Below are positions 4,775 to 52,596 of a DNA stretch of 64,000 nt, piece by piece. The stretch comes from Chloroflexota bacterium (GTDB lineage: Bacteria > Chloroflexota > Limnocylindria > P2-11E): NCBI GenBank assembly GCA_005889405.1, contig VBFY01000056.1, positions 46,389-110,388 on the forward strand. Reading direction: 5' to 3'. Both the position numbers and the translations under genes were made by a program. The notes beneath the pieces are model-generated. The model saw only the letters and a program-made list of their open reading frames with translations, had not been told where the DNA came from and made no database searches. Numbering within the stretch: position 1 is the stretch's first letter; each line of letters begins with the position of its first letter.

Positions 4775-4783
4775 AGAGGTGCC

Positions 4784-5335: not shown

Positions 5336-5461
5336 CGCAGGTTGGCTGGGTCGCGGCGTCGTGGGAAGCCCCGAGGAGCCTCGCGGCTGTCACACGTTCA
5401 TGTGACGGGGCGCGCGAAAACGCGGTACCGCGATCATGCGCGGGGTCGCTGCCCTCGCGTC

Positions 5462-16636: not shown

Positions 16637-18816
<2,180 letters not shown>

Positions 18817-18817
<1 letters not shown>

Positions 18818-19349: not shown

Positions 19350-19353
<4 letters not shown>
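18817..19353 (+). CDS. PaaI/4HBT-family hotdog thioesterase with an N-terminal CxxC motif
   Basis: [14 protein letters not shown] hotdog signature. N-terminal [15 protein letters not shown]. The GTG start overlaps the gyrB stop and the stop overlaps the gyrA start. Confidence 0.7.
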
Positions 19354-22331
<2,978 letters not shown>

Positions 22332-35784: not shown

Positions 35785-36684
35785 CTAGGGACCACGTTCG
35801 GGACGGGGTCGATAGCCGCCGCCCGGCCGCGGTCCGTACCCACGGCGAGGGCCGTAGCCGCCACCCCCCGGACCGGCCGGCCTCGGCCGGAAGCCACCCC
35901 CGCCGGGCCCGCTCTCGCGGAACGGACCGCGCGCGCCAGGCGCCGTCGAGCTGATCACGACGCGACGGTTCGGCTCCATGCCGACGGACTCGGTCTTCAG
36001 ACCCTGCTGGCTTTGCACCGACAGGTGCACGATGCGCCGCTCGTACGCGAGCATCGGCTCGAGGGTCACGGCCTGTCCGCTCGCGCGCACCCGCGAGCCG
36101 ACGCGCTGGGCGATCTCGCGGAGCTGGTCCTCTCGGCGCCGCCGATAGCCTTCGATGTCGATCGGGACGTGCACGGAACGGCCGACCCGCTTCGACGTGA
36201 TGGCGCTCACGATCTGCTGCAGCGCGACGAGGTTCTCGCCGCCGCGCCCGATGAGCGCGCCGAGGTCGGTGCCGAGGACGTCGACTCCCTCCGACCCAGG
36301 GCGATCCTCGAGCGTGACCTCGGCGTCGACGCCCATCGCCTCCAGCAACTCGCGCAGCACGGCGGCACCGAGGGCGAGCTCTTCCGCAAAGGCGGGTGAT
36401 GCCTCGTCGCTGTCTTCCTCGCGTGCGACGCGTACCGAGCCCGGATGCCGCGGGACCTCGGCCTCGTCGATCACGGCGTCGGGCTCGGCCGGGCGCTCCT
36501 CCTCCTGGAACGACAGCAGGACCCGCGCGTCCTCGCCGCCCATGCCGAGTACGTTCGCGGGCTTGCCCTTCTCCAGGATCTCGATGTCTACCTCGGTCCG
36601 TTTGCGACCGAGCGCCCTCAGCCCGCGCTCGATCGCTTCTTCGACCGTGCGACCGGTGAACTCCTCCCCGCGCAGTGGGCTCAT
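35785..36684 (-). CDS. khpB: Jag/KhpB RNA-binding protein (Jag_N + KH + R3H) with an RGG-rich tail
   Basis: R3H/KH region (IDIEGYRRRREDQLREIAQRV...) and conserved position after yidC. Confidence 0.8.
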   Translation of the reverse strand: MSPLRGEEFTGRTVEEAIERGLRALGRKRTEVDIEILEKGKPANVLGMGGEDARVLLSFQEEERPAEPDAVIDEAEVPRHPGSVRVAREEDSDEASPAFAEELALGAAVLRELLEAMGVDAEVTLEDRPGSEGVDVLGTDLGALIGRGGENLVALQQIVSAITSKRVGRSVHVPIDIEGYRRRREDQLREIAQRVGSRVRASGQAVTLEPMLAYERRIVHLSVQSQQGLKTESVGMEPNRRVVISSTAPGARGPFRESGPGGGGFRPRPAGPGGGGYGPRRGYGPRPGGGYRPRPERGP

Positions 36685-37652
36685 CGCTTCCCCCTCCTCC
36701 GTCCGCGGCGGCGACCGCCGTTCGAGGCGCCTGACGCCGTGGGCACTGCCTCGGGGTCGTCCGCCTCTTCCTTGTCCTTGTCCTTCATATCCTTACGCGC
36801 CTCGACGATCGCGGCCTGCTCACGACGATGGAGCTCGCGGTCCGCGGGCGTCGGGATGCCGCGCAGGAACGGAAGGTATTTCGGCAGCTGTCCCCAACCA
36901 CTCACGAAGTACTGCTGCACGATCTGGAACAGCGTCGTCGTGATCCAGTAGAGCGTGAGGCCGGCGGGGAACTGCGCGCCGATGACCACTGTGATGAGCG
37001 GGAACGTGTACGCCATCGACTGGGTCATGCGCTGCGCCGTGTCGCCGGTCTGGACCTGCTTGACCGGCATCGCCATGACCGAGGCGATGAGCTGCACTGC
37101 GCCGGCCAGCACCGGCAGGATGAAGAACGGATCGCGGTGCTGCAGACCTTCGATGATCCATGGCAGCCAGTGCGCGGTCGTGTCGAGTGACCCGTCGGGC
37201 GGGATCGGATTGGAGATGAACGCGTAACGGAAGCTCTCGACCATGTCGTGCGTCAAACCGGGACAGAGATTGCCTGGGGGTGGGCCGAGCCCGCAGCCAA
37301 GCTGCAGCAATGAGTTGTACAGCGCGATCAGGAGTGGCATCTGCAACACCAGCGGCAAGCATCCGGCGGCAGGGTTCACGCCGCGCTCGCTGTAGAGCTT
37401 CATCTGTTCCTGGCTGAAGCGCTGACGATCTTTGCCGTACTTCTTCTTGAGGTCCTCCATCGCCGGCGCGACCTCTTGCATCGCGCGCTGCGAGCGGATC
37501 TGCGTCACGTAGAGCGGATACAGCGCGAGCCGGATCGTGATCGTGACCAGCACGATCGCGAGGCCGAAGTCGTGGACGATCGAATACGCGAACAGGGTCA
37601 GGTTCATGACCGGATGGACGAGGAGCGTGTTCCACAGCGTCAGGAGGTCCAT
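36681..37652 (-). CDS. yidC: membrane protein insertase YidC (short Gram-positive type)
   Basis: YidC/Oxa1 core helices and charged C-terminal tail. The stop overlaps the jag start. Confidence 0.9.
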   Translation of the reverse strand: MDLLTLWNTLLVHPVMNLTLFAYSIVHDFGLAIVLVTITIRLALYPLYVTQIRSQRAMQEVAPAMEDLKKKYGKDRQRFSQEQMKLYSERGVNPAAGCLPLVLQMPLLIALYNSLLQLGCGLGPPPGNLCPGLTHDMVESFRYAFISNPIPPDGSLDTTAHWLPWIIEGLQHRDPFFILPVLAGAVQLIASVMAMPVKQVQTGDTAQRMTQSMAYTFPLITVVIGAQFPAGLTLYWITTTLFQIVQQYFVSGWGQLPKYLPFLRGIPTPADRELHRREQAAIVEARKDMKDKDKEEADDPEAVPTASGASNGGRRRGRRRGKR

Positions 37653-37867: not shown

Positions 37868-38205
37868 CGAGATGACTGGCGCGCGCTGCCAAGAGCCGCC
37901 TCAGCCGCGGCGCGTAAAGCCGAAAAATCCGCGGCGATCGCGTCGCGGCGCACCGTCACCACGATGTCCAGCGCGGGCGTGATATCGGCGGCGGCGCACG
38001 CCTGGCGGAAGGCTTCACGCACGCGACGCCGCGCGCGATTGCGGATCGTCGAGAGCCCCACGGTGCGCGGCGCCGACACCGCTAGGCGCATCACGTTCAG
38101 GTCATTGGGGCGCAGGCGCGCGGTGAATGCGACATCGCGTACGCCGCGCCCGATCTTTCGCACGGTCGCGATATCGGTGGACCGCCGCAAACGCGCGGCG
38201 TTCAT
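37864..38205 (-). CDS. rnpA: ribonuclease P protein component
   Basis: ~113 aa basic protein (MNAARLRRSTDIATVRKIGRGVRDVAF...RRRVREAFR) in the rpmH-rnpA-yidD-yidC context. The upstream part of ORF 37864..38631 is not coding for RnpA. Confidence 0.8.
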   Translation of the reverse strand: MNAARLRRSTDIATVRKIGRGVRDVAFTARLRPNDLNVMRLAVSAPRTVGLSTIRNRARRRVREAFRQACAAADITPALDIVVTVRRDAIAADFSALRAAAEAALGSARQSSR

Positions 38206-38219
38206 GTCGGCGAGGTCGT

Positions 38220-38357
38220 TCAGGCGACGGTCAGTCGCTTCCGTCCACGCGCGCGACGTTGTGCCAACACCTTGCGGCCGCCCGTCGTCTTCATCCGCGC
38301 GCGAAAACCGTGCACTCGCGCGCGGCGACGCGTCTTCGGCTGATACGTGCGCTTCAC
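38220..38357 (-). CDS. rpmH: 50S ribosomal protein L34
   Basis: Not in the ORF track. GTG start with SD; the product is [45 protein letters not shown] (canonical L34). Confidence 0.85.
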
Positions 38358-38566
38358 GAACTGTCCCTTCTCCCCCGAAAAAAATGGACGAACAAACGAA
38401 GAGCGGATCCTCTATGTGTGCGAGAAAGTCTAGCAGTGTGACTGTGCTACTGTTCCGTGGCTTCCAGCGGGCGGATCTTCTTCGTTTTCGCGTTCGGTGT
38501 GGCGGCATCTCGCGTGATCGTGTTGTGGGGAGCGTCGTTGTGGTCGAGCGCAGAGAAGGGGAGCCG

Positions 38567-39937
38567 TTGAACCTCAAGCAGCTCTGGCACGGGGCCCTCG
38601 GCGAGCTGCAGCTCGGACTCACCAAAGCCAATTACGACACGTGGTTCAAAGACACCGCGATCGTCTCCGAAGAGGACGATGTCTATTGCGTCGGCGTTCC
38701 CAACGCCTTTGCTCGCGAGTGGCTCGAGAACAAGTATCGGCAGCAGGTGCGGGACGCGCTGCGGCACCTCGTCGGCCGCACGGTGGACGTGCGTTTCGTG
38801 ACGCTCACGGCCGCGTCGGTGCGCTCCGATCGTCCGGTCGCGGGCGGCGGCGGCGGTTCATCCGCCACGACCTCGGCGGCGCCCGCGCAGGACCGCCGTG
38901 ACGCGACCGCCGCGGCGCTGCTCAACGCGCGTTACACGTTCTCCACGTTCGTGGTCGGTTCGAACAACCGTTTGGCGCACGCGGCGGCGCTCTCTGTCGC
39001 CGAGCGACCGGGCCACAGCTATAACCCGCTCTTCATCTACGGCGGCTCCGGCCTCGGCAAGACGCATCTGATGCACGCGATCGGTCATGCCGTGATCTCC
39101 CGTCACCCGAAGAAGCGCGTCGCCTACGCGACCAGTGAGAAGTTCACGAACGAGTTCATCAATTCGATCCGCGGCCAGAAGAGCGAGGAGTTCCGCGAGC
39201 GGTATCGGCGCATCGACGTGCTCCTCATCGACGACATCCAGTTCCTCACGGGCAAAGAGGGCACGCAGGAAGAGTTCTTCCACACGTTCAACGCCATCCA
39301 CGAAGAGGGGAAGCAGATCGTCCTCTCAAGCGACCGTCCGCCCAAAGCGATCGAGCGGCTCGAGGACCGGCTCCGCTCCCGTTTTGAGTGGGGTCTCATC
39401 GCCGATATCTCGACGCCGGACCTCGAGACCCGGATCGCGATCCTCCGCGCGAAGGCAGAGGCTCAGTCGGTCGCAGTGCCGCCACCGGTCATCGACTTTC
39501 TCGCGCAGCGGATCGTGTCGAACATCCGCGAGCTCGAGGGCGCGCTCACGAGGATCGTCGCGTATGCGACCCTGAGCGCGGTCCCGGTCACGACCCAGCT
39601 CGCCCAGGAGATGCTCCAGAACATCCTCTACAACCCGCGACAGAAGACGCTGTCACCGGATCGCATTGTCGAGACGGTCGCGCGCTACTACGGAGTGCCG
39701 TCCGAGCAGCTGCGGGGCAAGGCACGTGACAAGCAAGTCGTCCTGCCGCGCCAGATCGCGATGTACCTCATGCGCGAGGAGACTGAGGCGCCGCTGATGC
39801 GGATCGGGGAAGCCCTGGGAGGCCGCGACCACTCCACGGTCCTGCACGGCTGCGAGAAGATCGAGCGAGAGATGGCCGAGAACGACGACTTCCGACGGGA
39901 CGTTGGCGCCCTCCGGGAGATGCTGTACTCGGATTAG
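38567..39937 (+). CDS. dnaA: chromosomal replication initiator protein DnaA
   Basis: TTG start with SD gaaggggag. N-terminus LNLKQLWHGALGELQLGL...NAFAREWLENKY. AAA+ Walker A GGSGLGKTHL and a C-terminal DNA-binding domain. The ORF-track N-terminal extension is the rpmH-side spacer. Confidence 0.9.
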   Translation: MNLKQLWHGALGELQLGLTKANYDTWFKDTAIVSEEDDVYCVGVPNAFAREWLENKYRQQVRDALRHLVGRTVDVRFVTLTAASVRSDRPVAGGGGGSSATTSAAPAQDRRDATAAALLNARYTFSTFVVGSNNRLAHAAALSVAERPGHSYNPLFIYGGSGLGKTHLMHAIGHAVISRHPKKRVAYATSEKFTNEFINSIRGQKSEEFRERYRRIDVLLIDDIQFLTGKEGTQEEFFHTFNAIHEEGKQIVLSSDRPPKAIERLEDRLRSRFEWGLIADISTPDLETRIAILRAKAEAQSVAVPPPVIDFLAQRIVSNIRELEGALTRIVAYATLSAVPVTTQLAQEMLQNILYNPRQKTLSPDRIVETVARYYGVPSEQLRGKARDKQVVLPRQIAMYLMREETEAPLMRIGEALGGRDHSTVLHGCEKIEREMAENDDFRRDVGALREMLYSD

Positions 39938-40293
39938 CCTCGGGGCGTCAAAACCCCCAGAAATACCGTGGGTTTCGCGGCGGTGTCCGGGTGTGGATAA
40001 GCCCGCACAATGTGTGGATAAGCGCACCCATTTGTGGACATGTGCACCAAGACCGTGTTTGATACAACAACGACCGTTGCGTACTAAGACATCGAAGGGG
40101 CTGGCTACCTCGGTGGTCCCCAGGTCGTCCAACGCGAGTCAACAGGAGGCCTCGAGCACACGCGGGCACGCCACGAACACGCCGGACCAGTCGTGACGCG
40201 ACAACAGCATCTCGGAACGCTCATAGTCCACACCACTACTGCTGGTACCAGCGTCTTCATAGATCTTTTCGGGGAAGGTACGGAGGATCCGCG
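39938..40293 (+). promoter_or_regulatory. putative oriC: DnaA-box cluster in the dnaA-dnaN intergenic region
   Basis: Two perfect TGTGGATAA boxes (39992-40000, 40013-40021), one TGTGGACA (40033-40040) and a weaker forward gTCCACAc (~40220). The flanking sequence is relatively AT-rich (gtgtttgatacaacaacgacc). Confidence 0.55.
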
Positions 40294-41421
40294 TTGAAGG
40301 TCACTTGTCTACAGGAGAACCTCGCGCGCGGGCTCCAGATCGCTGGACGAGCGGTCTCGACGCGAGGCAGCCTGCCGATCCTTGGGAATGTCCTACTTCG
40401 TACCGAGAGCGGCCGTCTCAAGCTCACCGCGACGAACCTGGAGGTCGGAATCAACTGCTGGGTACCAGCGAAGGTCGATGACGAAGGCGCGATCACGGTG
40501 CCGGCGAAGCTCTTCACCGACTTCGTGAATTCGCTGCCCGCTGGCCCGACCGAGCTCTCTCTCAACGTTCGTACGAAGACGGTCCATCTGAAGCGCGATC
40601 CATACGAAGCGAACTTCAAAGGCATGGACGCTGAGGAGTTTCCGATCATCCCGGTCGCACCGGACAAGCCGACGACGCGTGTAAGCAAGTCGATACTCCG
40701 GCGCATGATCGGCGAGGTCGCTTTCGTCGCGACGACCGACGACAGCCGGCCCGTCCTCACCGGCGTGCTGACCACGCTCGAGAGTGACAAGATCACGATG
40801 GCCGCGGCTGACCCGTACCGCCTCTCCGTACGTAACGCGAAGCTGATGGACCGAGTCGAGGGCAAGCTCGAGGTGATTATCCCCGCGCGCAGCTTGCAGG
40901 AAGTGCAGCGCGTCCTCGACGACAGCGAGGATCCGGTCGACATCTTCGTGACTCCGAACGGCAGCCAGGTGATCTTCCACACGCCGGAGGTAGACCTCGT
41001 GTCGCGTGTGATCGAGGGCCAGTTCCCGAACTACCGCCAGGTGATCCCACAGGGCAAACCGGCCACGCGGCTCGTGGCGCAGCGGGAGGAGCTGCTGCAG
41101 GCAACGCGGCTCGCCTCCCTGTTCGCGCGCGACTCGGCGAACATGCTTCGGTTCCAGGTGAACCCGGCGGATCATCCGCCGCTCGTGATCAGCGCGAACG
41201 CCGCCGAGGTCGGGGACCAAACGGCGAAGGTGGAGGCGACCGTCGAGGGACAGAACACCACCATCGCGTTCAACTCACGGTTCATCTACGACGCGCTCGG
41301 CAGTCTGACCGCGTCCGAGGTCGCGCTTGAGCTCGGCGGGCCGCTCGCGCCAGGTGTCATCAAGATCGTCGGCGATCCCGACTACCTTCACGTGGTGATG
41401 CCGCTCCGCATCCCGGCCTAG
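40294..41421 (+). CDS. dnaN: DNA polymerase III beta subunit (sliding clamp)
   Basis: 375 aa with a three-domain clamp pattern. TTG start with SD ggagga. Confidence 0.9.
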   Translation: MKVTCLQENLARGLQIAGRAVSTRGSLPILGNVLLRTESGRLKLTATNLEVGINCWVPAKVDDEGAITVPAKLFTDFVNSLPAGPTELSLNVRTKTVHLKRDPYEANFKGMDAEEFPIIPVAPDKPTTRVSKSILRRMIGEVAFVATTDDSRPVLTGVLTTLESDKITMAAADPYRLSVRNAKLMDRVEGKLEVIIPARSLQEVQRVLDDSEDPVDIFVTPNGSQVIFHTPEVDLVSRVIEGQFPNYRQVIPQGKPATRLVAQREELLQATRLASLFARDSANMLRFQVNPADHPPLVISANAAEVGDQTAKVEATVEGQNTTIAFNSRFIYDALGSLTASEVALELGGPLAPGVIKIVGDPDYLHVVMPLRIPA

Positions 41422-41424
41422 CGA

Positions 41425-42540
41425 GTGCGCGTCGCCACACTCGCGCTCGAGGACTTCCGCAGCTACGCACAGGTCGAGCTCCCCCTCGTGAGTGGGGCCA
41501 CCGCTTTTGTCGGACCGAATGGGGCCGGTAAGACCAACCTCCTGGAGGCGATCCATCTCATCGCGCGCGGCGACTCGCCACGCGCTCGTGATGACACGGA
41601 GATGGTCCGTTGGGGCGCGAACACAGCGCGGGTTCGCACCGAAGTCGATCGCGTCGAAGACCACCGCCGCATCGAAACGCTGCTCTTCGCGCCACCCGAC
41701 GGGGAGCGCCGGCGGCCGCGACGGTACCTGCTCGACGGTGCCCCGAAGCGGTCGGAAGATGCGGCCGGCGAGCTCGTCGTCGTCGCGTTCTTTCCTGAGG
41801 ACGTCGAGCTGCTGGGCGCCGCCCCGAGCGCGCGTCGCCGCTTCCTTGACGCGATGCTGGGTCAGATCGACCGTGCGCATCGGCGCGAGATGCGTGAGCT
41901 GCAACACGTGCTCGAACAGCGCAACGCGCTCCTGCGCGTCGCGCGCGAGGAGCTCGAGCTGCCCGAAGCGGAGATCGCTTTCTGGGACGCCGAGCTCATT
42001 CGACTCTCGGCTGCGATCTCGCTCCGACGGTCGCGGCTCGCGACCGAGCTTTCGGCGCCGTTCGTCAGCGCGACCGAACTCTTCACCGGCGCCGAGGGAC
42101 TCACCCTCGCGTACGCGGGACAGGTGGAGGGCGCCACGCTGGAGGAGCGCGCGAACGCGTACGCGCGTCTGGTGCGCGAGAAACGCGAACGCGAGCGCTG
42201 GCAGGGAACATCGCTCGTCGGGCCTCAGCGCGACGATCTTGTCGTCACCTCTGACGGCCGTATGTTGCCGGCCTTCGCGTCGCGCGGGGAGCATCGGAGT
42301 GCGGTGCTCTCGCTCAAGATCGCGGAGGCGGCGTGGCTCGCATCGCGCGTCGGGGAGCAGCCGGTCTTCCTGCTCGACGACGTGCTCTCGGAGCTCGACC
42401 CCGCGCGGCGGGAGGCGCTGGCGAACGCGATCCCGCAGGACGCGCAGACGCTGCTCACCGCGGCGATCGTCACGGCCCTGCCCGACGTGCTGCGGGAGCG
42501 CGCGGCGGTGGTGCCAGTGCGGCGGGGCGAGGTCGGATGA
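41425..42540 (+). CDS. recF: DNA replication and repair protein RecF
   Basis: Walker A GPNGAGKTNLLEA, signature and D-loop (FLLDDVLSELD). Confidence 0.9.
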   Translation: MRVATLALEDFRSYAQVELPLVSGATAFVGPNGAGKTNLLEAIHLIARGDSPRARDDTEMVRWGANTARVRTEVDRVEDHRRIETLLFAPPDGERRRPRRYLLDGAPKRSEDAAGELVVVAFFPEDVELLGAAPSARRRFLDAMLGQIDRAHRREMRELQHVLEQRNALLRVAREELELPEAEIAFWDAELIRLSAAISLRRSRLATELSAPFVSATELFTGAEGLTLAYAGQVEGATLEERANAYARLVREKRERERWQGTSLVGPQRDDLVVTSDGRMLPAFASRGEHRSAVLSLKIAEAAWLASRVGEQPVFLLDDVLSELDPARREALANAIPQDAQTLLTAAIVTALPDVLRERAAVVPVRRGEVG

Positions 42541-42830
42541 GGCCGATCGCCCACGCGATCCAGAGTGCGCTGCGGACGCTGGGGATCGAGCGGGGCGTCG
42601 CGCGCGCCGACGCTGTTCGCGCTTGGCACGCGGCCGCAACGATGGTGCTCGGCGCGGACGCGGTGTCAACGCGTGCCGTGCGGGCCGACGGCGACACGCT
42701 GGTGGTGCTGGTGCCGACCGCGCAGTGGGCGGGAGAGATCCGACTCCGCGAGCGCGAGCTTCTGGTGGCGCTCGCGGACCGCGCGCCCGCGAGCCGCATC
42801 GCGCGTCTTCGATGCGTTCCCTCGCCGTGA
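42537..42830 (+). CDS. DUF721 domain protein (recF-adjacent; Rv0004-like)
   Basis: 97 aa. The ATG overlaps the recF stop (ATGA). Pattern ...WHAAATMVLGADAVSTRAVRADGDTLVVLVPTAQWAGEI. Confidence 0.7.
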   Translation: MRPIAHAIQSALRTLGIERGVARADAVRAWHAAATMVLGADAVSTRAVRADGDTLVVLVPTAQWAGEIRLRERELLVALADRAPASRIARLRCVPSP

Positions 42831-42858
42831 CGCGGCGGGTCTGGGACACTCGCGACCG

Positions 42859-44928
42859 ATGCCACAGCTGAGCTTCGTCACGACGGTCGGCAGCACGGCG
42901 GACGTGCGAGCAAGCCGCGCCGACGTGATCCTCGTCAGCGAGCCTGAGACCGGGGCGACTCTTCGTACCAAGGGCCGGCTCTACCTGCTGTTCGAAGCGT
43001 CGCCGCCCGGACCCGCGGAAAAGCTCGCCCGCGAGGTCGCCGAGCTCACGCGTCAGGAGTACTACTACGACCTTTCCGCGGGGATCGAGGTCTCGCTGCG
43101 ACGCGCGCTGCGGCAGGCGAACCGCCGCGCGACGCAGCGGCTTCGCGAGAACCGCGGGTCGACGACGCTGCAGTGCGCGTGCGCCGTGATCGTGAACAAC
43201 GAGCTCTACACCTCGCGCGTCGGCGGCGCGCAGGTGTTCCTCGTCCGTCGCGCACGGCTCTTCCTCCCCGGTGACGAGCCCGGCGAGCTCGCCGACTTCG
43301 TCCACCGCACCACGACACGCGAGGCCACGTCGCTCGGCACGGACGCCGACGTGCTGCCAAAGGTGTGGCGCCAGTCGATCGAGGCGGGCGACACGGTCAT
43401 CCTCGCGAGCGCCGCACTCGTCGACGGGCTCGGCGCCGAGGCGCTCAAGAGCGCGGCGGTCACGCTTCATCCGCGGTCGGCTGCCGAGCACATCCACAAT
43501 CGCGCGGTCGCGGACGGCGTGGTCGGGAGCGACGCGGTGATCTTCATCGAGGTCGCGCAGTCCACGAGCGCGGCCGCCCGTCTCGCGCCAGAGCCGGCGC
43601 CGATCGTACGGCCGGCCGAGGTCGCCGTGGCGGATGGGATCCGGATGAGGCTGGACGTGGTGAACCGTATCGGGCAGAACGCCCGGCGGCTGCTGCGCGG
43701 CGCGACGACGCCGGTGACCTCGGCGGCGACAAAGAGCGTCGCCGTCGGTCTCGAGCTCATGCCGCGCCGCGGTGCGGCGCTGCCCCGTCACCCCGACACG
43801 GCACGCTCGCGTTCGCGCCGGCAGCGTCGCGCCATGACGACGCTCGCCGTGCTGCTCCTCGTCGCGGCGACCGGCGTGGGCGCACTCGCCTATCGCGACT
43901 ACGAGTCGACCCGGGCCGGTCGCGAGTACCAGCTCGCCGTCGCCAACGCGGAGGACTTCATCGCGTCGGCACACCGTCTGGCCGATCGCAAGCCGCCGGA
44001 TCCCGACGGCGCGCGCGAGCGCATGGCCAGCGCGACCGCGAAACTCGACGAAGCGAGCCGCTCGACATTCGCGGATCCGGAGAAGATCGCTGCCCTGCGC
44101 GCGGATATCGCGGCCCTCTCCGACCGTCTCGACGGCGTGATCCTCGATCTCGCGCGGTTCGGGACCGGAACGAAGCTCGCGCAGGTCGTCGGGAACGTGA
44201 ACGGTCTGTACGTCACCGACCCCGGCTCCGGACGGCTCTGGCGCGTGTTCGGCGATCCGATCCAGCAGGGGCCGGTGCTCCAGCGCGGCGTCAAAGGCGT
44301 TGGCTCGCCGGTGCAGATCGCGCTCGAGGACTTCGCGGTCTACTCGCTCGACGACGCGGGCAAGCTGTGGCGTGCCGAGGGCGATCAGGTCGCCGACGTG
44401 ACCCCCGCCGAGCGTGAGAAGTGGAAGACGCCAGCCGCCCTCGCGGTGTTCGCCAGCAACCTGTACGTCCTCGACGGCGAGACCGGCCAGCTGTGGAAGC
44501 ACGAGTCGAACGACGGCGTTCGCTTCGGCCCGGCCATCGGGTATCTCGCGACGCCGCTCGCCCCGAACACAGCCCGAGCGCTCGCTGTCGACGGCGATGT
44601 CTGGATCGTGACCTCCTCCGGAGACCTGCAACGATTCCGCCGCAACCCGCTCGTCACGACCACCTCGCGCATCGACTTCGTTCCGCGCTGGGAGGGAACG
44701 GCGCCGCGCGCGAACGCCGTCCAGGCCATCGACACGCAGGGATCGATCTATGTGCTCGACTCGGGCGGCAAGCTCATCGTCCAGCTCACGCGCGAGGGCC
44801 GCGAGTTGGCGCGGTTCGCGCTGCCACCCGGACTGCCGCCGGCCGCGAGCTTCTACGTCTCCGAGTCGCTGAAGGTCGCCTACACACTTCACGGGACGAA
44901 GATCGTCGCCACGAGCATCGTGCGTTGA
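42859..44928 (+). CDS. membrane protein: N-terminal PP2C-fold pseudophosphatase domain, one TM helix, and C-terminal beta-propeller-like repeats
   Basis: Residues ~20-320 follow PPM motif order but lack the metal-binding Asp residues (EASPPG for DGxGG; GGAQ for GDSR; SAAL for SDGL). TM helix MTTLAVLLLVAATGVGALAY. Repeats GLYVTDPGSGRLW / LYVLDGETGQLW / IYVLDSGGKLI. Confidence 0.6.
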   Translation: MPQLSFVTTVGSTADVRASRADVILVSEPETGATLRTKGRLYLLFEASPPGPAEKLAREVAELTRQEYYYDLSAGIEVSLRRALRQANRRATQRLRENRGSTTLQCACAVIVNNELYTSRVGGAQVFLVRRARLFLPGDEPGELADFVHRTTTREATSLGTDADVLPKVWRQSIEAGDTVILASAALVDGLGAEALKSAAVTLHPRSAAEHIHNRAVADGVVGSDAVIFIEVAQSTSAAARLAPEPAPIVRPAEVAVADGIRMRLDVVNRIGQNARRLLRGATTPVTSAATKSVAVGLELMPRRGAALPRHPDTARSRSRRQRRAMTTLAVLLLVAATGVGALAYRDYESTRAGREYQLAVANAEDFIASAHRLADRKPPDPDGARERMASATAKLDEASRSTFADPEKIAALRADIAALSDRLDGVILDLARFGTGTKLAQVVGNVNGLYVTDPGSGRLWRVFGDPIQQGPVLQRGVKGVGSPVQIALEDFAVYSLDDAGKLWRAEGDQVADVTPAEREKWKTPAALAVFASNLYVLDGETGQLWKHESNDGVRFGPAIGYLATPLAPNTARALAVDGDVWIVTSSGDLQRFRRNPLVTTTSRIDFVPRWEGTAPRANAVQAIDTQGSIYVLDSGGKLIVQLTREGRELARFALPPGLPPAASFYVSESLKVAYTLHGTKIVATSIVR

Positions 44929-45623
44929 TCCCGCTGCGGGATGCGAATCCCGTACGCAGCGCACCGATCGTCAACCGCCTCCTCCTCGCGGTGAACCTCG
45001 CCGTCTGGCTCTACATCGTGTATCTCACTCGGCAACCGGGAGCGATGGAGGCGTTCTTCGACCGCTACTCGTTCGACTGGCTCGAGTTCACGCGGCGCAT
45101 CTCGTCAGGCGATCTTGGAGCAGCGACGTTCGTGCCCCTCGTGTCGCACATGTTCCTGCACGGCGGCTGGCTACACGTGCTTGGGAACATGCTCTATCTC
45201 TGGATCTTCGGCGACAACGTCGAAGACCGGTTCGGCAGCGCCCAATACCTGGTCTTCTACCTGCTGTGCGGCGTCGTCGCGGCGATCGGGCAGGGACTCG
45301 TCTCGCCCTCGCCGATGGTCGGCGCGTCCGGCGCGATCGCGGGCGTGCTCGCCGCCTACCTCATCATGTATCCGACCGCGCGCGTGTCGACGCTGGTGTT
45401 CCTCGGGCTGTTCATCACGATCGTCGAGCTGCCCGCGCTCATCGTCATCGGGATGTTCATCGTGCTCCAGGTCATCGAGGGTGTTGCCGAGCTGCGCCTC
45501 ACCGGTCACGCCGCCACCCAGCAGATCGCGTATTTCGCGCACATCTTCGGATTCGTCGCGGGATTGGTGTTGCTCGTATTCTTCCGGCGCGCCGATGCGG
45601 CACGCCGCGTTCGTTTCGGTTGA
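44925..45623 (+). CDS. rhomboid-family intramembrane serine protease
   Basis: The TTG start overlaps the upstream stop (TTGA). GxSG (GASGAIAG) is in TM4 and His (AHIFGF) in TM6, with 6-7 TM helices. Confidence 0.8.
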   Translation: MIPLRDANPVRSAPIVNRLLLAVNLAVWLYIVYLTRQPGAMEAFFDRYSFDWLEFTRRISSGDLGAATFVPLVSHMFLHGGWLHVLGNMLYLWIFGDNVEDRFGSAQYLVFYLLCGVVAAIGQGLVSPSPMVGASGAIAGVLAAYLIMYPTARVSTLVFLGLFITIVELPALIVIGMFIVLQVIEGVAELRLTGHAATQQIAYFAHIFGFVAGLVLLVFFRRADAARRVRFG

Positions 45624-45668
45624 CACGCAAACAGGCGAACGCGGACCGGGTGGAGGTAGCCTAAGGCG

Positions 45669-46169
45669 ATGCTCGTCCCCTGCACGGTCGAGTCGGTCCG
45701 AGTGCATGTCCTCACTGGTCAGCACGTTGTGCTGCTTCAAGCGAAGGAGAGCAACCGCCTTCTTCCGATCTGGATCGGACCCGACCAGGCACACAGCATC
45801 GCGACGCGCATCGCCGGTATCGCGAGCGAGCGTCCGCTCACTCACGACCTGATGATGGATGTGCTCACCAAGCTCGGCGTCGAGATCACGCGCATCGTCG
45901 TGAAGGATCTCGTCGCCGACGACAGCGGAGGCGGTGTGTTCCACGGCAGCCTGTTCCTGCAGTTCGGCGAGCGCGAGGTCGAGATCGACTGCCGGCCGTC
46001 TGATGCCATCGCTCTCGCGGTGCGCTGCGAGGCGCGCATCCTCGTGTCGGACACGGTGCTCGATCGCTCCGCGATCTCCGCGGAGAGCGAGGACGACGAG
46101 AACATCGCGGTGTTCAAGGAGTTCATCCAGACCCTTCCCGACGATCCGCCGGGTTCGAGCTCCAGCTAA
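45669..46169 (+). CDS. bifunctional nuclease family protein (BFN/DUF151)
   Basis: LPIWIGPDQAHSIA...RPLTHDLMMDVL...EIDCRPSDAIALAVR matches the DUF151 consensus. Confidence 0.8.
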   Translation: MLVPCTVESVRVHVLTGQHVVLLQAKESNRLLPIWIGPDQAHSIATRIAGIASERPLTHDLMMDVLTKLGVEITRIVVKDLVADDSGGGVFHGSLFLQFGEREVEIDCRPSDAIALAVRCEARILVSDTVLDRSAISAESEDDENIAVFKEFIQTLPDDPPGSSSS

Positions 46170-46885
46170 GCGGGAAGTCCCCAGAGCCGGAGGCGCAGGC
46201 GCAAGAGGTCGCGGATCGCGCGCAGGATCACCTTCGGCTGCTGGCCCTTCGCCTTACCGGCGCTGCGTGGGTAATGCGGTACGCCGACCTCCCGCATACG
46301 GATGCCAGCGCGCCTCAGCGTGATGAGCATCTCCGCTGAGAAGAAGGCGCCGTTCGAGCGGACGCTCCCCAGCGGAACGCGCTCGAACACTTCGCGACGG
46401 AAGAGCTTGAACGCGCAGTCCACGTCGCGGAAACCTCCGAAGAACATGACGCGGATCACGCGGTTGTAGACCCATGCGACGAAACGCGTTCGCGGCGGAT
46501 CCCGACGCTTCAGGCGATAGCCCAACACGACATCGACCCCGTCGATGGCGGCCGTCAGGCGCCCGAGGTCCGCGATGTCGAACTGCCGATCGCCGTCGGT
46601 GAAGAAGATGAACTCCTTCGTCCCCGACAGCAGGCCGGAGCGCACCGCGCCGCCGTAGCCGCGGCGCGCGCCGTGGTGGACGACGTGCACGCGCGGGTCG
46701 GCCTTCGAGAGGTCGTCGGCGATCTTCCCGGTCCTGTCGGTGCTGCCGTCGTCGATCACCGTGACCTCGATGTCGTCGGCGAAACGCGGCAACACCGTCA
46801 GCGCGTCACGCACCACGGCCTCCACGTGATCTTCCTCGTTGAGCGCCGGAAAGAAGAACGAGAGGCTGCTGAGTCGTGCGGACAA
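46166..46885 (-). CDS. GT2 glycosyltransferase (polyprenol-phosphate sugar synthase, DPM1/Ppm1-like)
   Basis: 239 aa with a GT-A fold, DxD (TVIDDGSTD; FTDGD) motifs and DPM1-like size. Confidence 0.8.
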   Translation of the reverse strand: MSARLSSLSFFFPALNEEDHVEAVVRDALTVLPRFADDIEVTVIDDGSTDRTGKIADDLSKADPRVHVVHHGARRGYGGAVRSGLLSGTKEFIFFTDGDRQFDIADLGRLTAAIDGVDVVLGYRLKRRDPPRTRFVAWVYNRVIRVMFFGGFRDVDCAFKLFRREVFERVPLGSVRSNGAFFSAEMLITLRRAGIRMREVGVPHYPRSAGKAKGQQPKVILRAIRDLLRLRLRLWGLPA

Positions 46886-46915
46886 CGCAGCGCAAGGTTA
46901 GCGTGTTGCGTCGGG

Positions 46916-48106
46916 ATGACCTGGAGCGACCGCAGGATCGCGATCGCGCTCGCGGCCTCAGGCGCCGTGGCGTACCTCGTCGCCGGGCTCGGACTTGTCA
47001 CCGATTACGACTATTACGGACGTCTCGCGCAGTCGCTCCTGCAGGGGCAGTGGTGGGTGAGCGAAGCGCCGCCGTGGCTCAACGAGCTCGTGCCGTGCGG
47101 CGTGGAGCGCTGGTGCGTCGTCTATCCACCGCTCCCGGCGGTGCTCGCGATGCCGCTTGCGACGGTGCTGCCGACCGCGTTCGCGCAGGTGCTCGTTTCG
47201 CGCATCGCCGGCGGTGTCTCGGCTGGGATCCTGTATCTGGCGCTGCGCGCGTTCGGCGCGCCGCGTTTCGTCGCGATCACCGGAACGGCCCTCTCGGCCT
47301 TCGGGACCACGCTGTTCTTCTCGAGCGTGGATGGACGCGCGTGGTTCGCGGCGCACGCGGTCGCGATGCCGTTCATCTGCGCCGCGCTGCTGTTCGCCGC
47401 TCGCGGCGAGCGCGCGTGGATCGTCGGCGTCTGTATCGGACTCGCGGCGCTGGCTCGCCTCCCTGTCGCCGCCGCGGCACCGGCGCTCGCGCTGCTCCTC
47501 GCGCGTCGCGCGGGCACGCCGTATCTGGGAGCGCTGGGCGGCGTCGTGATCGGCGGCGCGCCGTTCGCGCTCGTGTACGTCGGTTGGAACCTGCTGCGAT
47601 GGGGATCGGTGTTCGACGCGGGATACGTGCAGCTCACGCAGGGCGACGTCTTCTTCACGCGGGGCCTCTTTTCGCCGTTCTATCTGCCGCGCCACATCTA
47701 CGCGATCTTCCTCGAGCCACCCGACCTCGTGGAGGGGACACCGTTCTTCCTGCGGCCGCGGGGTATCGGCACGGCGCTCTTCCTGACGACGCCGGCATTC
47801 CTGTGGCTCTTTGCGGGTCTCCGCAGCGTGCGTCGTGACGCCGTCACCGCGGCCGTTGCGTTCGCGGCGCTGCTTGCGCTCGTCCCCGACATCTTCCACG
47901 GCACCGTCGGCTTCCAGCAGTTCGGCTATCGCTTTTCGATGGACGCGCAGCCGTTCCTCGTCGCGCTCGCGCTCGTCGGGGATGCGCGCGGCCGTTCCGC
48001 ATGGCGCGCGCGCCCATCGTGGCTCCTCGTCGCGGTGGTGACGGTGTCGATCGCGATCAATCTGTACGCGATGATCGCGATCACGCGGTTCGACTACTGG
48101 CAGTGA
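46916..48106 (+). CDS. polytopic GT-C-like membrane glycosyltransferase (family unresolved)
   Basis: ~397 aa with 9-11 TM helices and an acidic first-loop motif (VTDYDYYGRL). It is divergent from the GT2 gene. Only the distal part of track ORF 46673..48106 is genuine. Confidence 0.45.
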   Translation: MTWSDRRIAIALAASGAVAYLVAGLGLVTDYDYYGRLAQSLLQGQWWVSEAPPWLNELVPCGVERWCVVYPPLPAVLAMPLATVLPTAFAQVLVSRIAGGVSAGILYLALRAFGAPRFVAITGTALSAFGTTLFFSSVDGRAWFAAHAVAMPFICAALLFAARGERAWIVGVCIGLAALARLPVAAAAPALALLLARRAGTPYLGALGGVVIGGAPFALVYVGWNLLRWGSVFDAGYVQLTQGDVFFTRGLFSPFYLPRHIYAIFLEPPDLVEGTPFFLRPRGIGTALFLTTPAFLWLFAGLRSVRRDAVTAAVAFAALLALVPDIFHGTVGFQQFGYRFSMDAQPFLVALALVGDARGRSAWRARPSWLLVAVVTVSIAINLYAMIAITRFDYWQ

Positions 48107-48124
48107 CCGGATCCAGAGCCGACC

Positions 48125-51100
48125 GTGCGCGATGACCGCCGCGCGCGCCTCGCCATGGCGGGCCTCATCACCGTCGGCGTCGCGCTGCGCCTGCTGACGC
48201 TGCGGTCCCCCGGGTTCCCCAGCGACGTCGGCACCTTCCAGGCGTGGGCCGAGCATCTCGTCCAGGTCGGACCGAGCGGGTTCTATGCGCCGGACTACTT
48301 CAGCGATTACCCGCCGGCGTATCTCTACGTCCTCTGGCTGTTCGGCGCGTTGTTCGATGGTGAGCTGCTCCGTCTCGCGGTGAAGGCCGCGAGCATCCCG
48401 GCCGACATCGCGATCGCCGTCGGAGGGGCGACGCTGGTGTGGCGTCACGCGGGTCGCACGAGCGCGATCCTCGCAGCAGGTCTTTGGTCGCTCTCGCCGG
48501 CTGCGATCTTCGCCGGCCCGTACTGGGGGCAGATCGACGCCGTGGGTTCGCTGCCCCTCTTCGCGGCCCTCGTCACCGCGGGACGCGGCCGCTGGGCCAC
48601 GGCCGGTGGGCTCGCGGCGCTCGCCGCGATGGTGAAGCCGCAGTTCGGCATCGGCGTGGTGGTGCTCGCCGCCGCCGTGCTCATCGAGCTGATCCGCTAC
48701 GGACGCTGGCAGCCACTGGGGCGCGTCGCGCTCGCCGGCATCATCACGGCTCTCGCGCTGGGCGCGCCGTTCAGGGCCGGGCCCGCGGAGCTCATCGATC
48801 TCGTGAAGAAGGCATCCGAGACCTATCCGTACACCTCGCTCTTCGCGTTCAACGTCTGGTCGATCGTCGCCGATTTCTGGCAGCCCGATGCCGCGTTCGT
48901 CGGCCTCGGAACGCTCCTCCTCGTCGCGGGCCTGGTCGGCTCGTGCGTGCCGCTGTGGTGGCGCCGCGACACCGCGACGTTCCTCGCGGCGGGCACGCTC
49001 GCGGCCTGCGCCTTCTACTTCCTGCCCACGCGCGCCCACGAGCGGTACCTGTTCCCCGCGTTGGTGTTGCTGCTTCCGCTGGCCGCGGTACGCGCGCGCC
49101 TCCTCTGGCCTTACGTCGTGTTCTCGCTCGGCTTCGCGCTGACGCTGTACTTCGCGTTCACGCGCTACGCGCAGAACGACCTCAGGTCGCCGCCGTGGCT
49201 CGAGGCGTCGCTCTTCTCGCGTACGGGACAGATCGTGCTCGCGCTCTTCATGCTCGGCACCGCCGCGCTGGTCGCATGGCGGCTCCTCCGCGGCGAGGCA
49301 CGGCTCGAGCCGTCACTGGAGGTCTCCCTTCCGCCGGCACCATCGCCGGCGGCGGAGCCGCGCACCGCGTGGAGCCTGCCGTCGGCGCTCGCGGCGGGAC
49401 ACGCGCCGACGCGCCGCGATCTTTCGATCGCGCTGCTCGTCGCGCTCGCGGTCCTGGTGACGCGCGGCTATCGCATCGATCACCCGCGGGACATGTACTT
49501 CGACGAGGTCTATCACGCGCGCACCGCGTTCGAGCTCCTCGCGCAGCGCGATCCGTACGAGTGGACGCACCCTCATCTCGCGAAGGAGATGATGGCGCTC
49601 GGGATCCTCGCGTTCGGGGATGACCGGGTCGTCGGTCGCGAGCCGCTGCGCCCGAACGTCGTCGCGTTCGCCGTCGGTCCGGATGGCACGCGCGCGTACG
49701 CCACGTCTGATGGCTTCATCAGCGTCAGCGGGCGCGACGGCGCGGCGCCCCGTGACGTCGCGAAAGGTGCGCTCGGGGTCCGGCGCATCGTCCTCGACCG
49801 CGACCGCGTTTTCTGGGTCACCGATACCGAGCTCTTCCAGGATCCGCTGAAGGAGTCACCCAGCAACAGCGCCATCGCCCGGACGACGCTGCCCATGAGC
49901 GGACCGGTCACCGCCCTCTTCATGTCGAGCGGCCGTGTCGTCGCTCTGTCCGCGTCCGGCACCGCCATCTACACGGCGGTCGACGCGGCGCCGATCGTCT
50001 CGCGGCTTGGCGGCGTGGCCGCGACGTCGAACACCGACGGTACGGAGCTCTATGTTCTCGACGCGCGTGGCGACGTGCACGTCGTCGATCCGGCGACGGG
50101 ATCCGAGACGCGGCAGCTGCCCGGTGGTGGTCCGGGCCGCGCGATCGCGTATGCGCAGGGGCCGAACCGGCTCTTCGTGGCACGCACCGACGCGCCGGCG
50201 CTGGATGTCTACGAGCTACCGAACGGGCAGCGGGACTCGGTGACGCTGGGCAACGCGCGCACCGGCACGTTCTCGTCCGGCGCCACCGCCCTTGCGCTCG
50301 TGCCGCGCACGCAGTTCCTCTACGCCCTCGCGGAGGGCCGCGTCGTGGTCGTCGAGGTCCACGGTGCGTCGCCGTTCGCGTCGATACCCGTGTCCGGATC
50401 GCTTCTCGGTGTCGATAACGATGAGGACAAGCTTCTCGTCGCCGGCACAGACGGCGCCGAGCGCATCGAAACAGGACGTCACGCGCTGGCCTGGCGCCTG
50501 CCCGGCGCGGTGCTCGGCGCGATCCTCGCGTTCTTCCTCGTGCTGCTCGCGCGCCGCCTCTTCGCCTCGCCCGTCGTCGCGTGGCTCGTCGGCGCGGCGG
50601 TGCTGCTGTGCGGATCGATGTTCGCGCAGGCACGCATCGGCATGAACGACATCTACGTGGCGACCTTCATCGTCGCGGGGTGGTACTTCATCGTCGCCGC
50701 GCATACGCCGAGGCGTTCCGCCGCGCTCGATATCGTGATCGCTGGAGCAATGCTCGGGCTCGGCCTCGCCTCGAAGTGGGCCGCGGCCTACACGCTGGGT
50801 GGCGTCTTCGTGCTCGCCGTCGGCGTCACCGCGTTCGCGTATGAACGCGGACGGCCTGGGACCGGCGGACCGCTCGACCTGCTCGCGGGCCGCGGCCGCA
50901 ACGCCGCCTTGCTCTTCGCCTCGTTCGCCGTGATCCCGCTGGTCATCTACCTTGCGAGCTACGTCAGCTGGTTCGGTGGAGCGACGGCGCCGTATGGCTG
51001 GAATCTGTGGGAGCTGACGCAGCAGATGTACTGGTATCACAGCTCGCTCACCGCGCCGCACTGCGCGGGCTCGCCGTGGTGGAGCTGGCCGCTGGATCTC

Positions 51101-51694
51101 AAACCCGTCTACTGGTACTTCGGCGCGAGCAGCGGAGGCACGAATGGGTACATCTATGACGCGGGCAACATCGTGCTCTTCTGGGCGGCGCTGCCGGCTG
51201 CCGCGCTCACCGTCGCGCTTGCAGTACGCGCGCGGTCGCACTCGCTCGGCGTGCTGTCGCTCGCGATGCTCGCGCAGTACCTCGCCTGGATCCCGATCTC
51301 ACGCGTGCTGTTCTTCTATCACTTCTTCACCGTGCTGCCCTTCTATCTGCTCTGTCTGGCGGCGATGCTCGCCGTGCTGTGGGAGCGCCGGCGAAAGGCC
51401 GTGCTCGTTTTCCTCGGGGTGGCCGCGGCGGCCTTCGTCATCTTCTATCCGTACGTCTCCGGCCTGCCCATCCCCGGCGAGCTCGGGAGCCTCTACGCGA
51501 TCCTGCCCACCTGGCAGTACGACCCGACGTTCTATCCCACCGACTCGTGTCCGACGCCGGTGAGCGCCAGTGCGCTGACGTCGGCGACGGTCGCGGGAGC
51601 ATGGATCATCGAGACGGCCGTGCTGCTCCTCGCCGTCGCCGTGGCGATCGGCTTGCCGCCCGCGCGACGGCTGCTCGACCGGCTCGGGTTCTAG
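48125..51694 (+). CDS. giant membrane protein (1189 aa): GT-C module fused to a PMT (GT39)-like protein mannosyltransferase carrying an inserted YVTN-type beta-propeller
   Basis: N-terminal ~400 aa GT-C-like polytopic domain (PDYFSDYPPAYLY). Residues ~440-480 carry the PMT loop-1/TM2 signature (DMYFDEVYHARTAFELL...EWTHPHLAKEMMALGILAFG). Residues ~490-780 carry LYVLDARGDVHVVDPATG-type YVTN repeats. The C-terminal ~400 aa are polytopic. Confidence 0.6.
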   Translation: MRDDRRARLAMAGLITVGVALRLLTLRSPGFPSDVGTFQAWAEHLVQVGPSGFYAPDYFSDYPPAYLYVLWLFGALFDGELLRLAVKAASIPADIAIAVGGATLVWRHAGRTSAILAAGLWSLSPAAIFAGPYWGQIDAVGSLPLFAALVTAGRGRWATAGGLAALAAMVKPQFGIGVVVLAAAVLIELIRYGRWQPLGRVALAGIITALALGAPFRAGPAELIDLVKKASETYPYTSLFAFNVWSIVADFWQPDAAFVGLGTLLLVAGLVGSCVPLWWRRDTATFLAAGTLAACAFYFLPTRAHERYLFPALVLLLPLAAVRARLLWPYVVFSLGFALTLYFAFTRYAQNDLRSPPWLEASLFSRTGQIVLALFMLGTAALVAWRLLRGEARLEPSLEVSLPPAPSPAAEPRTAWSLPSALAAGHAPTRRDLSIALLVALAVLVTRGYRIDHPRDMYFDEVYHARTAFELLAQRDPYEWTHPHLAKEMMALGILAFGDDRVVGREPLRPNVVAFAVGPDGTRAYATSDGFISVSGRDGAAPRDVAKGALGVRRIVLDRDRVFWVTDTELFQDPLKESPSNSAIARTTLPMSGPVTALFMSSGRVVALSASGTAIYTAVDAAPIVSRLGGVAATSNTDGTELYVLDARGDVHVVDPATGSETRQLPGGGPGRAIAYAQGPNRLFVARTDAPALDVYELPNGQRDSVTLGNARTGTFSSGATALALVPRTQFLYALAEGRVVVVEVHGASPFASIPVSGSLLGVDNDEDKLLVAGTDGAERIETGRHALAWRLPGAVLGAILAFFLVLLARRLFASPVVAWLVGAAVLLCGSMFAQARIGMNDIYVATFIVAGWYFIVAAHTPRRSAALDIVIAGAMLGLGLASKWAAAYTLGGVFVLAVGVTAFAYERGRPGTGGPLDLLAGRGRNAALLFASFAVIPLVIYLASYVSWFGGATAPYGWNLWELTQQMYWYHSSLTAPHCAGSPWWSWPLDLKPVYWYFGASSGGTNGYIYDAGNIVLFWAALPAAALTVALAVRARSHSLGVLSLAMLAQYLAWIPISRVLFFYHFFTVLPFYLLCLAAMLAVLWERRRKAVLVFLGVAAAAFVIFYPYVSGLPIPGELGSLYAILPTWQYDPTFYPTDSCPTPVSASALTSATVAGAWIIETAVLLLAVAVAIGLPPARRLLDRLGF

Positions 51695-52596
51695 GGGCTC
51701 GCGCTCGGCGACGGTTCCAGCGACGGCGACGCCGACGGCGACGGCGCCGGAGAGGGCGTCGCGGTCTCGGTCGCCGTTGGCGAAGCGGTCACGGGACTTG
51801 GACGTGCCGACGTGGCCGGAGGCACGGAGCTCGCCGCGAAAAGGACCGCGATGGCGCCGCCGACCGTGACGAGGATCAGGAGCGCGAACACGACGAACGC
51901 GGCCGCGCGGCCCGCGGCGCTGGTGACCGTAGCCGAGCGACCCGGCGCATGCAGCAGGACGGTGATGTTGTCCTGACCGCCGCGGGCGTTCGCGAGGTCG
52001 ACGAGCGCGTTCGCCGCCGTGCGCACATCCTCACCGCTCGCGACCTTCGCGATCTCCTCTGGCGTGACGTGTCGCGTGAGACCGTCGCTGCAGAGCAGGA
52101 GACGGTCTGCCGGACGCAAAGTCTCGACGAAGATGTCGGGCTGGATGCCGCGAACGTCACCGGCGAAGCGCGTGATCGCGTGCGCCGCCTCACCGGAATG
52201 ATCTTCGGTGAGCTGCCGGCTCACGCCGTCGCGGATCAGGTAGGCACGGCTGTCGCCGAGGTTGGCGATGATCGCCTGATCGGCGCGCACCGCCGCCGCG
52301 ACGATCGTGGTCGCCGCATCGCGATGGCCCGAGGAGATCGCCGCCCGCAGCACCGCGGCATTGGCATCGCGCATCGCCTCCGCGAGAGCATCGCTCGTCG
52401 CGCGATCCGGCGGTGCACCGAAGAAGCGGAGCCCAAGCTCGACCATCGCGGCGTCGGCGGCGATCTCACCACCGCTCGATCCGCCGACGCCGTCCGCGAC
52501 GGCGAGCAGCGTGACGCCACGCTCTTCGCGGACGAGGTAGCGATCTTCGTTCCCGTCACGGACGCGACCTGTATCCGTCTTCACACCGGTCGCCAT
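51691..52596 (-). CDS. PP2C-family Ser/Thr phosphatase with a C-terminal TM helix and a Pro/Ser/Thr-rich tail
   Basis: Intact PPM motifs (AVADGVGG, NLGDSRAYL, CSDGLT, GQDNITV). Start MATGVKTDTGRVR is 5 nt after the kinase stop. Confidence 0.85.
   Translation of the reverse strand: MATGVKTDTGRVRDGNEDRYLVREERGVTLLAVADGVGGSSGGEIAADAAMVELGLRFFGAPPDRATSDALAEAMRDANAAVLRAAISSGHRDAATTIVAAAVRADQAIIANLGDSRAYLIRDGVSRQLTEDHSGEAAHAITRFAGDVRGIQPDIFVETLRPADRLLLCSDGLTRHVTPEEIAKVASGEDVRTAANALVDLANARGGQDNITVLLHAPGRSATVTSAAGRAAAFVVFALLILVTVGGAIAVLFAASSVPPATSARPSPVTASPTATETATPSPAPSPSASPSLEPSPSASP

Follow-up and report, generated by a model that had tools for sequence, protein, structure and literature searches.

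Bacterial pseudoenzymes are, to our knowledge, little studied, and the Chloroflexota are almost without genetics. TAB1 is a PP2C-fold pseudophosphatase that acts by binding, and the soluble RssB is the only well-understood bacterial PP2C pseudophosphatase that we could name. The C-terminal domain of RssB from Escherichia coli is a PP2C pseudophosphatase in which some catalytic aspartates are missing and which works by binding (PMC6546054), and PHLPP2 is presented as an inactive PP2C-fold pseudophosphatase with partly lost catalytic aspartates that likewise acts by binding (PMC12002173). RssB, TAB1 and PHLPP2 are soluble, the PP2C fold being joined to cytosolic modules such as a receiver domain, and none of them is a membrane-spanning receptor whose sensor lies outside the cytoplasm. 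The subject of this work is a membrane protein of 689 amino acids that resembles these three in having a PP2C fold minus some of the catalytic aspartates, a likeness which is that of a shared fold. It is encoded on a 64,000-nucleotide stretch of a soil Chloroflexota bacterium of the class Limnocylindria (assembly GCA_005889405.1, contig VBFY01000056.1, positions 46,389 to 110,388), referred to here as the window, at positions 42859-44928 of the + strand including the stop codon.

As a receptor, the 689-residue protein can be compared with PknD of Mycobacterium tuberculosis, which has a six-bladed propeller as its sensor (PMC3601408); the cytoplasmic part of PknD is a kinase, whereas that of the 689-residue protein is a dead phosphatase fold. 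PstP from M. tuberculosis and the canonical PP2C encoded in the window keep every metal-binding motif, while the 689-residue protein is without the aspartates of motifs II and VIII and of the GDSR motif, and probably without that of motif XI. PstP-type membrane PP2Cs also have a short or low-complexity ectodomain in place of the folded NHL propeller found here. Active receptor-type PP2Cs of 810-817 residues (P0250, P0251, P0263 and P0268) can be detected with phmmer from the N-terminal domain at about 5e-9 and share with the 689-residue protein the RKG and YYxD motifs, a single N-in transmembrane (TM) helix and a large ectodomain. Unlike it, they keep the motifs NED, DGMGGH, GDSR, DGLS and DNIT and match Pfam PP2C. 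In P0250, the one active case examined, the gene is neither beside a rhomboid gene nor near dnaN-recF.

The gene for the 689-residue protein overlaps that of a rhomboid protease. The latter has the same domain as the GlpG/YqgP-type rhomboids, with the GxSG serine, the TM6 histidine and the H...H...N motif of TM2, but is without an N-terminal cytosolic regulatory domain, and compared with the canonical substrates of these proteases the product of the overlapping upstream gene is oriented the "wrong" way. A preliminary description of the window, made from its letters, knew of no characterised system in which a pseudophosphatase is paired with a rhomboid, and literature searches for a PP2C-rhomboid or pseudophosphatase-rhomboid pairing likewise found none. 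The components, namely a membrane PP2C, a PP2C pseudophosphatase, an NHL sensor and a rhomboid, are all of known kinds; their combination into a transmembrane receptor with a dead PP2C domain as its output appears to be undescribed. Neither Pfam nor NCBIfam has a model for the family, and one database source names a member "PrpC", a label by which its relationship to PP2C is already faintly recognised. The reading favoured here, to which a probability of roughly 55% is given, is that the 689-residue protein is a receptor-type pseudophosphatase which binds or scaffolds and does not hydrolyse, with the rhomboid as a co-expressed and facultative companion.

The PP2C-like domain and its metal site

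The cytoplasmic N-terminal domain (42904-43554, + strand; residues ~16-232) escapes the common profile libraries. Scanned against Pfam, entire and half by half, the protein gave no match for this domain even at E <= 10, and the domain reached none of the curated thresholds of Pfam PP2C, PP2C_2 and SpoIIE or of NCBIfam Stp1; the NCBIfam model Stp1_PP2C matches it weakly (3e-4, 20 bits against a cut-off of 230). A profile of its close homologues run against the sequences in the PDB found no PP2C. The assignment comes from structure matching, transitive homology and profile comparison. The AlphaFold2 model of the protein has a mean predicted local distance difference test (pLDDT) score of 75.8, with ~80 for the N-terminal domain, which Foldseek matches to tPphA, Stp1, PstP and PppA with E ~1e-9 and TMt ~0.7. 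An exhaustive phmmer search with residues 1-330 recovered 393 cluster representatives and reached, at 4.7e-9, the protein P0250, which carries Pfam PP2C; such matches occur in seven of 39 sampled phmmer relatives, down to 5e-20. Finally, hhalign aligned the N-domain profile of the family with canonical PP2Cs over residues 36-232 at 99.7% (E 1.4e-25) and reproduced exactly the two motif alignments of the preliminary description, GTT...GDSR and GD..LLcSDGL. These three independent lines establish the PP2C fold (a central beta-sandwich flanked by helices) and the PP2C ancestry of the domain. It is also shown that the domain is descended from active receptor-type PP2Cs of identical architecture.

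The metal site was followed through 76 orthologues, comprising the window and 75 complete genes from fetched loci (45 close and 31 distant), which were aligned against canonical PP2Cs by MAFFT, hhalign and hmmsearch. The aspartate of motif II (xDGxGG), which bridges both metals, is replaced by Glu46; the position holds glutamate in all 45 close orthologues and Thr, Ser, Asn or Ala in the 31 distant ones. The glycine after motif II is Ala47 in the window and Ala or Val across the orthologues, and has thus been lost everywhere. At the aspartate of GDSR the protein has Gly123 and its close orthologues Ala, Gly, Gln or Arg. Distant orthologues have Pro there when a rhomboid gene is present and Asp in six of the 18 that are without one; Asp is never found at this position in the 45 close or the 13 distant rhomboid-bearing orthologues. 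The motif VIII aspartate (xSDGL) has become Ala185, and the position is occupied by Gly, Ala, Pro or Arg in all 76. For the motif XI aspartate (DNxT), all three methods give Gly223, a nearly invariant glycine. Two residues further on lies Asp225, which could substitute if the loop has a two-residue insertion; it is present in 58 of the 76 orthologues and in 27 of the 45 close ones, and is otherwise Ala, Val or His within the clade of the window. That the motif XI aspartate is retained as Asp225 is the less likely reading, as hhalign and hmmsearch place Gly223 there.

Motif I, on the other hand, is kept: Arg17 and Asp22 fall on R-x-x-N-E-D (K-R-P-H-N-E-D in P0250) in a gap-free alignment, and Asp22 is retained in 75 of 76 orthologues. 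The earlier statement that every metal-coordinating aspartate is substituted therefore stands for motifs II and VIII and for GDSR, and probably for motif XI, and fails for motif I. Its expectation of a PPM fold is borne out by AlphaFold2 with Foldseek and by hhalign. On sequence grounds, the conclusion stands that the binuclear metal site is gone, and the identity of the domain as a canonical active phosphatase is rejected. The domain has a PP2C fold, has lost catalytic aspartates and is under purifying selection, which makes it a pseudophosphatase in the sense in which the term is used for RssB (PMC6546054).

Conservation along the protein peaks in this domain, which has 74% identity to close and 43% to distant orthologues, where the propeller has 57% and 22%. 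This implies that the dead domain is functional in some non-catalytic or altered way. One part of it, the PP2C "flap" RRARLFLPGDEPGELADFVH (residues 130-169; 43246-43365 of the window), is invariant across the close clade, has pLDDT values below 50 over residues 132-154 of the AlphaFold2 model, and is shorter by ~17 residues in distant orthologues. The flap is likely a clade-specific binding surface, as far as can be predicted.

Architecture of the proposed receptor

The open reading frame begins with ATG, and this start is supported by the N-terminus MPQLSF.TTVGST, which orthologues keep across the 80 loci. A chance reading frame is ruled out by a GC content of 0.87 at third codon positions, in a window of ~68% GC, together with conservation in hundreds of genomes. 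Behind the PP2C-like domain follows an Arg-rich cytoplasmic linker (43555-43830, +; residues 233-324), a low-confidence region with pLDDT below 50 over residues 235-309 which contains conserved G-L-E-L-M-P-R-R and RRQRRA stretches. The single TM helix AMTTLAVLLLVAATGVGAL (43831-43887, +; residues 325-343) has a hydropathy of 2.08. No signal peptide was found at the N-terminus of the protein. The flank on the N-terminal side of the helix carries seven Lys and Arg residues (net charge +6), while that on the C-terminal side has a net charge of 0, which places the PP2C-like domain in the cytoplasm and the C-terminal 346 residues outside and makes the protein type II (N-in/C-out).

The extracytoplasmic part starts with a helical stalk of ~85 residues (43888-44148, +; residues 344-430). 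AlphaFold2 places helices at residues 315-376, 382-400 and 407-425 (pLDDT 86-95), so that in the model the TM helix runs on into the stalk. The remainder (44149-44925, +; residues 431-689) is a six-bladed NHL-type beta-propeller of ~255 residues, in which Pfam NHL recognises one repeat at 18.5 bits, below the cut-off of 20, and which, among bacterial structures, is matched most closely by the sensor domain of the receptor kinase PknD. Topology analysis and the AlphaFold2 model thus agree with the architecture that had been proposed for the protein, in which a single TM helix separates a PP2C fold in the cytoplasm from a propeller outside. The layout of PP2C domain, linker, one N-in TM helix and large ectodomain is common to nearly all relatives, dead or active.

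The rhomboid and its genomic setting

The downstream gene (44925-45623, +) encodes a protein of 232 residues that is recognised by Pfam Rhomboid (4.8e-34; 118 bits, with the cut-off at 22.6) and aligns to GlpG of Haemophilus influenzae (2nr9), with a six-TM GlpG-like core. Its catalytic equipment consists of Ser135 in a GASG motif, His206 in TM6 and the H...H...N motif of TM2; all 53 rhomboid orthologues have Ser135, His206 and His84. The basic C-terminal tail (net +4) indicates that the C-terminus is inside and fits the N-in/C-in six-TM topology of GlpG. The two genes meet at a TTGA sequence (44925-44928, +), in which the TTG start of the rhomboid gene (44925-44927) overlaps the TGA stop of the receptor gene (44926-44928), as the preliminary description had seen. 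In this lineage, the rhomboid gene is presumably co-transcribed with the receptor gene and is probably translationally coupled to it. A promoter and terminator scan of positions 40000-47000 gave nothing above shuffled expectation, and the boundaries of the operon are therefore inferred from gene spacing only.

There are 523 close homologues of the 689-residue protein, and in a scan of one genome per species relatives are present in at least 473 genomes. Eighty loci with 29-88% identity were fetched, almost all of them labelled Chloroflexota, using search patterns derived from a 16-sequence alignment, a 39-sequence alignment being too diverse for this purpose. L021 and L022, which show the synteny typical of Limnocylindria and 53-58% identity, come from metagenome-assembled genomes labelled Candidatus Udaeobacter and Candidatus Saccharimonadales and are probably mis-binned contigs. 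A rhomboid gene directly follows the receptor gene in 57 of the 75 loci that have downstream DNA, that is in 44 of 44 close and 13 of 31 distant ones. In 41 of these 57 the start and stop codons overlap as NTGA, with TTG, GTG or ATG as the start; in one of the 41 the aligned position reads CTG. The other rhomboid-bearing loci have gaps of 4-91 nucleotides. The 18 loci without a rhomboid have the nuclease gene next, with too little remaining space for a rhomboid, and in a neighbour-joining tree they fall into at least 3-4 groups, with L075 nested among rhomboid-bearing loci. The anticipated conservation of the pair thus extends to most relatives and breaks down in several clades, so that rhomboid and receptor do not co-occur consistently. 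The remote dead relatives P0260, P0178 and P0246, like the active P0250, lie in unrelated neighbourhoods that are without a rhomboid.

The pair is part of a larger conserved arrangement in an origin-proximal region. Upstream of it the window has yidC (36681-37652, -), dnaA (37964-39937, +), dnaN (40294-41421, +), recF (41425-42540, +; Pfam SMC_N) and dciA (42537-42830, +; Pfam DciA), of which the last two are also the upstream neighbours in relatives. The receptor gene has been said to occupy the usual place of gyrB after recF, and the order found is recF, dciA, receptor gene; gyrB (16646-18817) and gyrA (19350-22331, +) sit ~20 kb upstream of dnaA and not behind recF. Downstream follow a bifunctional-nuclease-domain gene (45669-46169, +; Pfam BFN_dom, PF02577, 3e-34), a GT2 glycosyltransferase gene (46166-46885, -), a gene for a polytopic membrane protein of 477 residues without a Pfam match (46673-48106, +) and one for a 1189-residue fusion of GT87, PMT and PMT_4TMC (48125-51694, +). 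The block dnaN-recF-(dciA)-receptor-(rhomboid)-BFN-GT2-477-residue protein-PMT is syntenic across all loci, with at least eight genes on both strands holding their order. Since the whole block is syntenic, the adjacency of pseudophosphatase and rhomboid is by itself weak evidence of a functional pair. The nuclease gene is the most constant downstream neighbour, occurring wherever the downstream DNA is long enough, also in the 18 loci without a rhomboid.

About 6.8 kb downstream of the receptor gene, on the opposite strand, lie a canonical PstP-like PP2C (51691-52596, -) and a PASTA Ser/Thr kinase (52602-53885, -). Both are recognised by Pfam, and an alignment with tPphA and Stp1 finds every canonical motif in the PP2C, in agreement with the genuine PP2C and PASTA kinase that had been reported 7 kb downstream. 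This PP2C has one TM helix (residues 234-252, counted from Met51) and an extracytoplasmic tail rich in Pro, Ser, Thr and Ala, which would be a plausible target for O-mannosylation by the nearby PMT-like enzyme. The conserved block at 46166-51694, formed by the GT2 gene, the 477-residue protein and the fusion, looks like a module of the polyprenyl-phosphate-sugar/protein O-mannosylation type. The 5' ends of the longest reading frames of the GT2 and 477-residue genes overlap head to head by ~210 nucleotides, and the true start of one or both is therefore probably further in. A propeller similar to that of the receptor had been suspected in the PMT-like protein, but this could not be upheld: BLASTP between the two gives an E value of 3.4, and the one other signal is a PQQ_2/BamB-like match below threshold at residues ~600-670, halfway along the fusion. 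A propeller shared with the 477-residue neighbour was likewise rejected (BLASTP E 4.5).

Several further observations concern the envelope or the surroundings. In 8-9 relatives (L022, at 4774-5982, and L019, L025, L026, L030, L034, L038 and L039) an extra gene stands between dciA and the pseudophosphatase orthologue and encodes a secreted, EnvC-like coiled-coil protein of ~400 residues with an M23/LytM peptidase domain, which gives a hint of a cell-wall theme. In the window itself, an M23 domain occurs at another place (25138-25512). The remote dead-PP2C relative P0178 (775 residues) is directly followed by a RodZ-like gene (HTH_25/RodZ_C; L084, 7339-8094), which is another association with cell shape or envelope, outside the origin-proximal context. 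The gyrA gene of the window carries an intein within its topoisomerase domain (Pfam Intein_splicing 1.5e-14 and Hint, residues ~111-269).

Competing readings and significance

In the favoured model of a receptor-type pseudophosphatase, the PknD-like propeller would bind a ligand in the envelope or outside the cell, and the continuous helix of TM segment and stalk would relay the signal, probably through a change in oligomeric state. The dead PP2C domain, which still bears the phosphate-contacting arginine and the aspartate of motif I, would by analogy with RssB and TAB1 bind phosphorylated Ser/Thr proteins or the PASTA-kinase/PstP-like pair, with the kinase and the canonical PP2C as candidate signalling partners. 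The rhomboid is best seen as a facultative membrane partner, involved for example in the turnover or quality control of the receptor or of an associated protein, and it probably does not free the cytoplasmic domain through classical intramembrane cleavage.

A number of points weigh against this model. The binding role of the dead domain and its partners are argued from analogy, and it is proximity alone (~7 kb, opposite strand) that links the receptor to the PASTA kinase and the PP2C. At motif XI the alignment could be shifted by two residues, and Glu46, invariant in the clade of the window, could together with Asp22 and Asp225 hold one metal and allow a residual or altered catalysis. AlphaFold2 is only moderately confident in the N-terminal domain and less so, with pLDDT below 50, in residues 132-154 of the flap. 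In addition, the widespread four-nucleotide overlap is not explained by a rhomboid that is merely an incidental neighbour.

This last point bears directly on the view that the adjacency has no specific meaning, both genes travelling as passengers in a conserved operon near the origin, with the rhomboid serving general membrane-protein quality control. The constant gene order across all loci and the repeated loss of the rhomboid next to an unchanged neighbour fit such a view, as does the fact that bacterial rhomboids are known as quality-control proteases (PMC7232013; PMC7231995). Against it stands the overlap, held in most lineages with three different start codons, which implies at least a selection for co-expression and stoichiometric coupling. 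As the two proteins would then be made in fixed proportion, room is left for a physical or functional link, and the passenger explanation is considered rather unlikely.

More doubtful is the model of the preliminary description, in which the two proteins form a pair for regulated intramembrane proteolysis and a signal from the propeller would lead the rhomboid to cut the TM helix and free the pseudophosphatase domain. The immediate adjacency, the recurrent overlap in orthologues down to ~30% identity and the intact catalytic residues of all rhomboid orthologues are in favour of this model, and the candidate substrate is a single-pass protein with small or Gly residues in the outer half of its helix (TGVGALA). 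However, rhomboids preferentially cleave N-out single-pass substrates of type I or III (PMC7232013), and the receptor is type II. The rhomboid has been lost repeatedly, once from within a rhomboid-bearing group, and is missing beside remote relatives. The TM helix is no more conserved where a rhomboid is present (0.27) than where it is absent (0.32), helix and flanks being alike in both groups, and synteny extends over the whole region. These findings weaken the model, which is given a low probability.

A similarly low probability is assigned to a dedicated two-protein membrane module, in which dead PP2C receptor and rhomboid would couple envelope sensing to Ser/Thr-phosphorylation signalling from the dnaN-recF-dciA operon of the Limnocylindria. 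In one form of this proposal, the rhomboid would cut the type II receptor by an unconventional route; the second form would make the pseudophosphatase a ligand-gated regulatory or substrate-recruiting subunit of the rhomboid.

That the N-terminal domain is still an enzyme, a PP2C with a non-canonical site of Asp22, Glu46 and Asp225 and a specialised substrate, is very improbable: the gap-free motif I, the glutamate fixed in the close clade, the frequent Asp225 and the strong conservation of the domain would all suit it, but Glu46 gives way to Thr or Ser in distant orthologues, Asp225 varies in the clade of the window itself, the motif VIII aspartate and the glycine after motif II are lost everywhere, Pfam PP2C does not match, and such losses accompany inactivity in RssB (PMC6546054) and PHLPP2 (PMC12002173).

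The family of the 689-residue receptor would be a clean natural case of an enzyme that has become a binding module inside a receptor. It spans hundreds of uncultured soil and freshwater Chloroflexota, and active relatives with the same layout allow a comparison of both states. The family gives a point of entry to Ser/Thr signalling and envelope sensing in the Chloroflexota and, if the link to the rhomboid is functional, would provide bacterial rhomboids with a natural substrate or regulator, something that is much needed.

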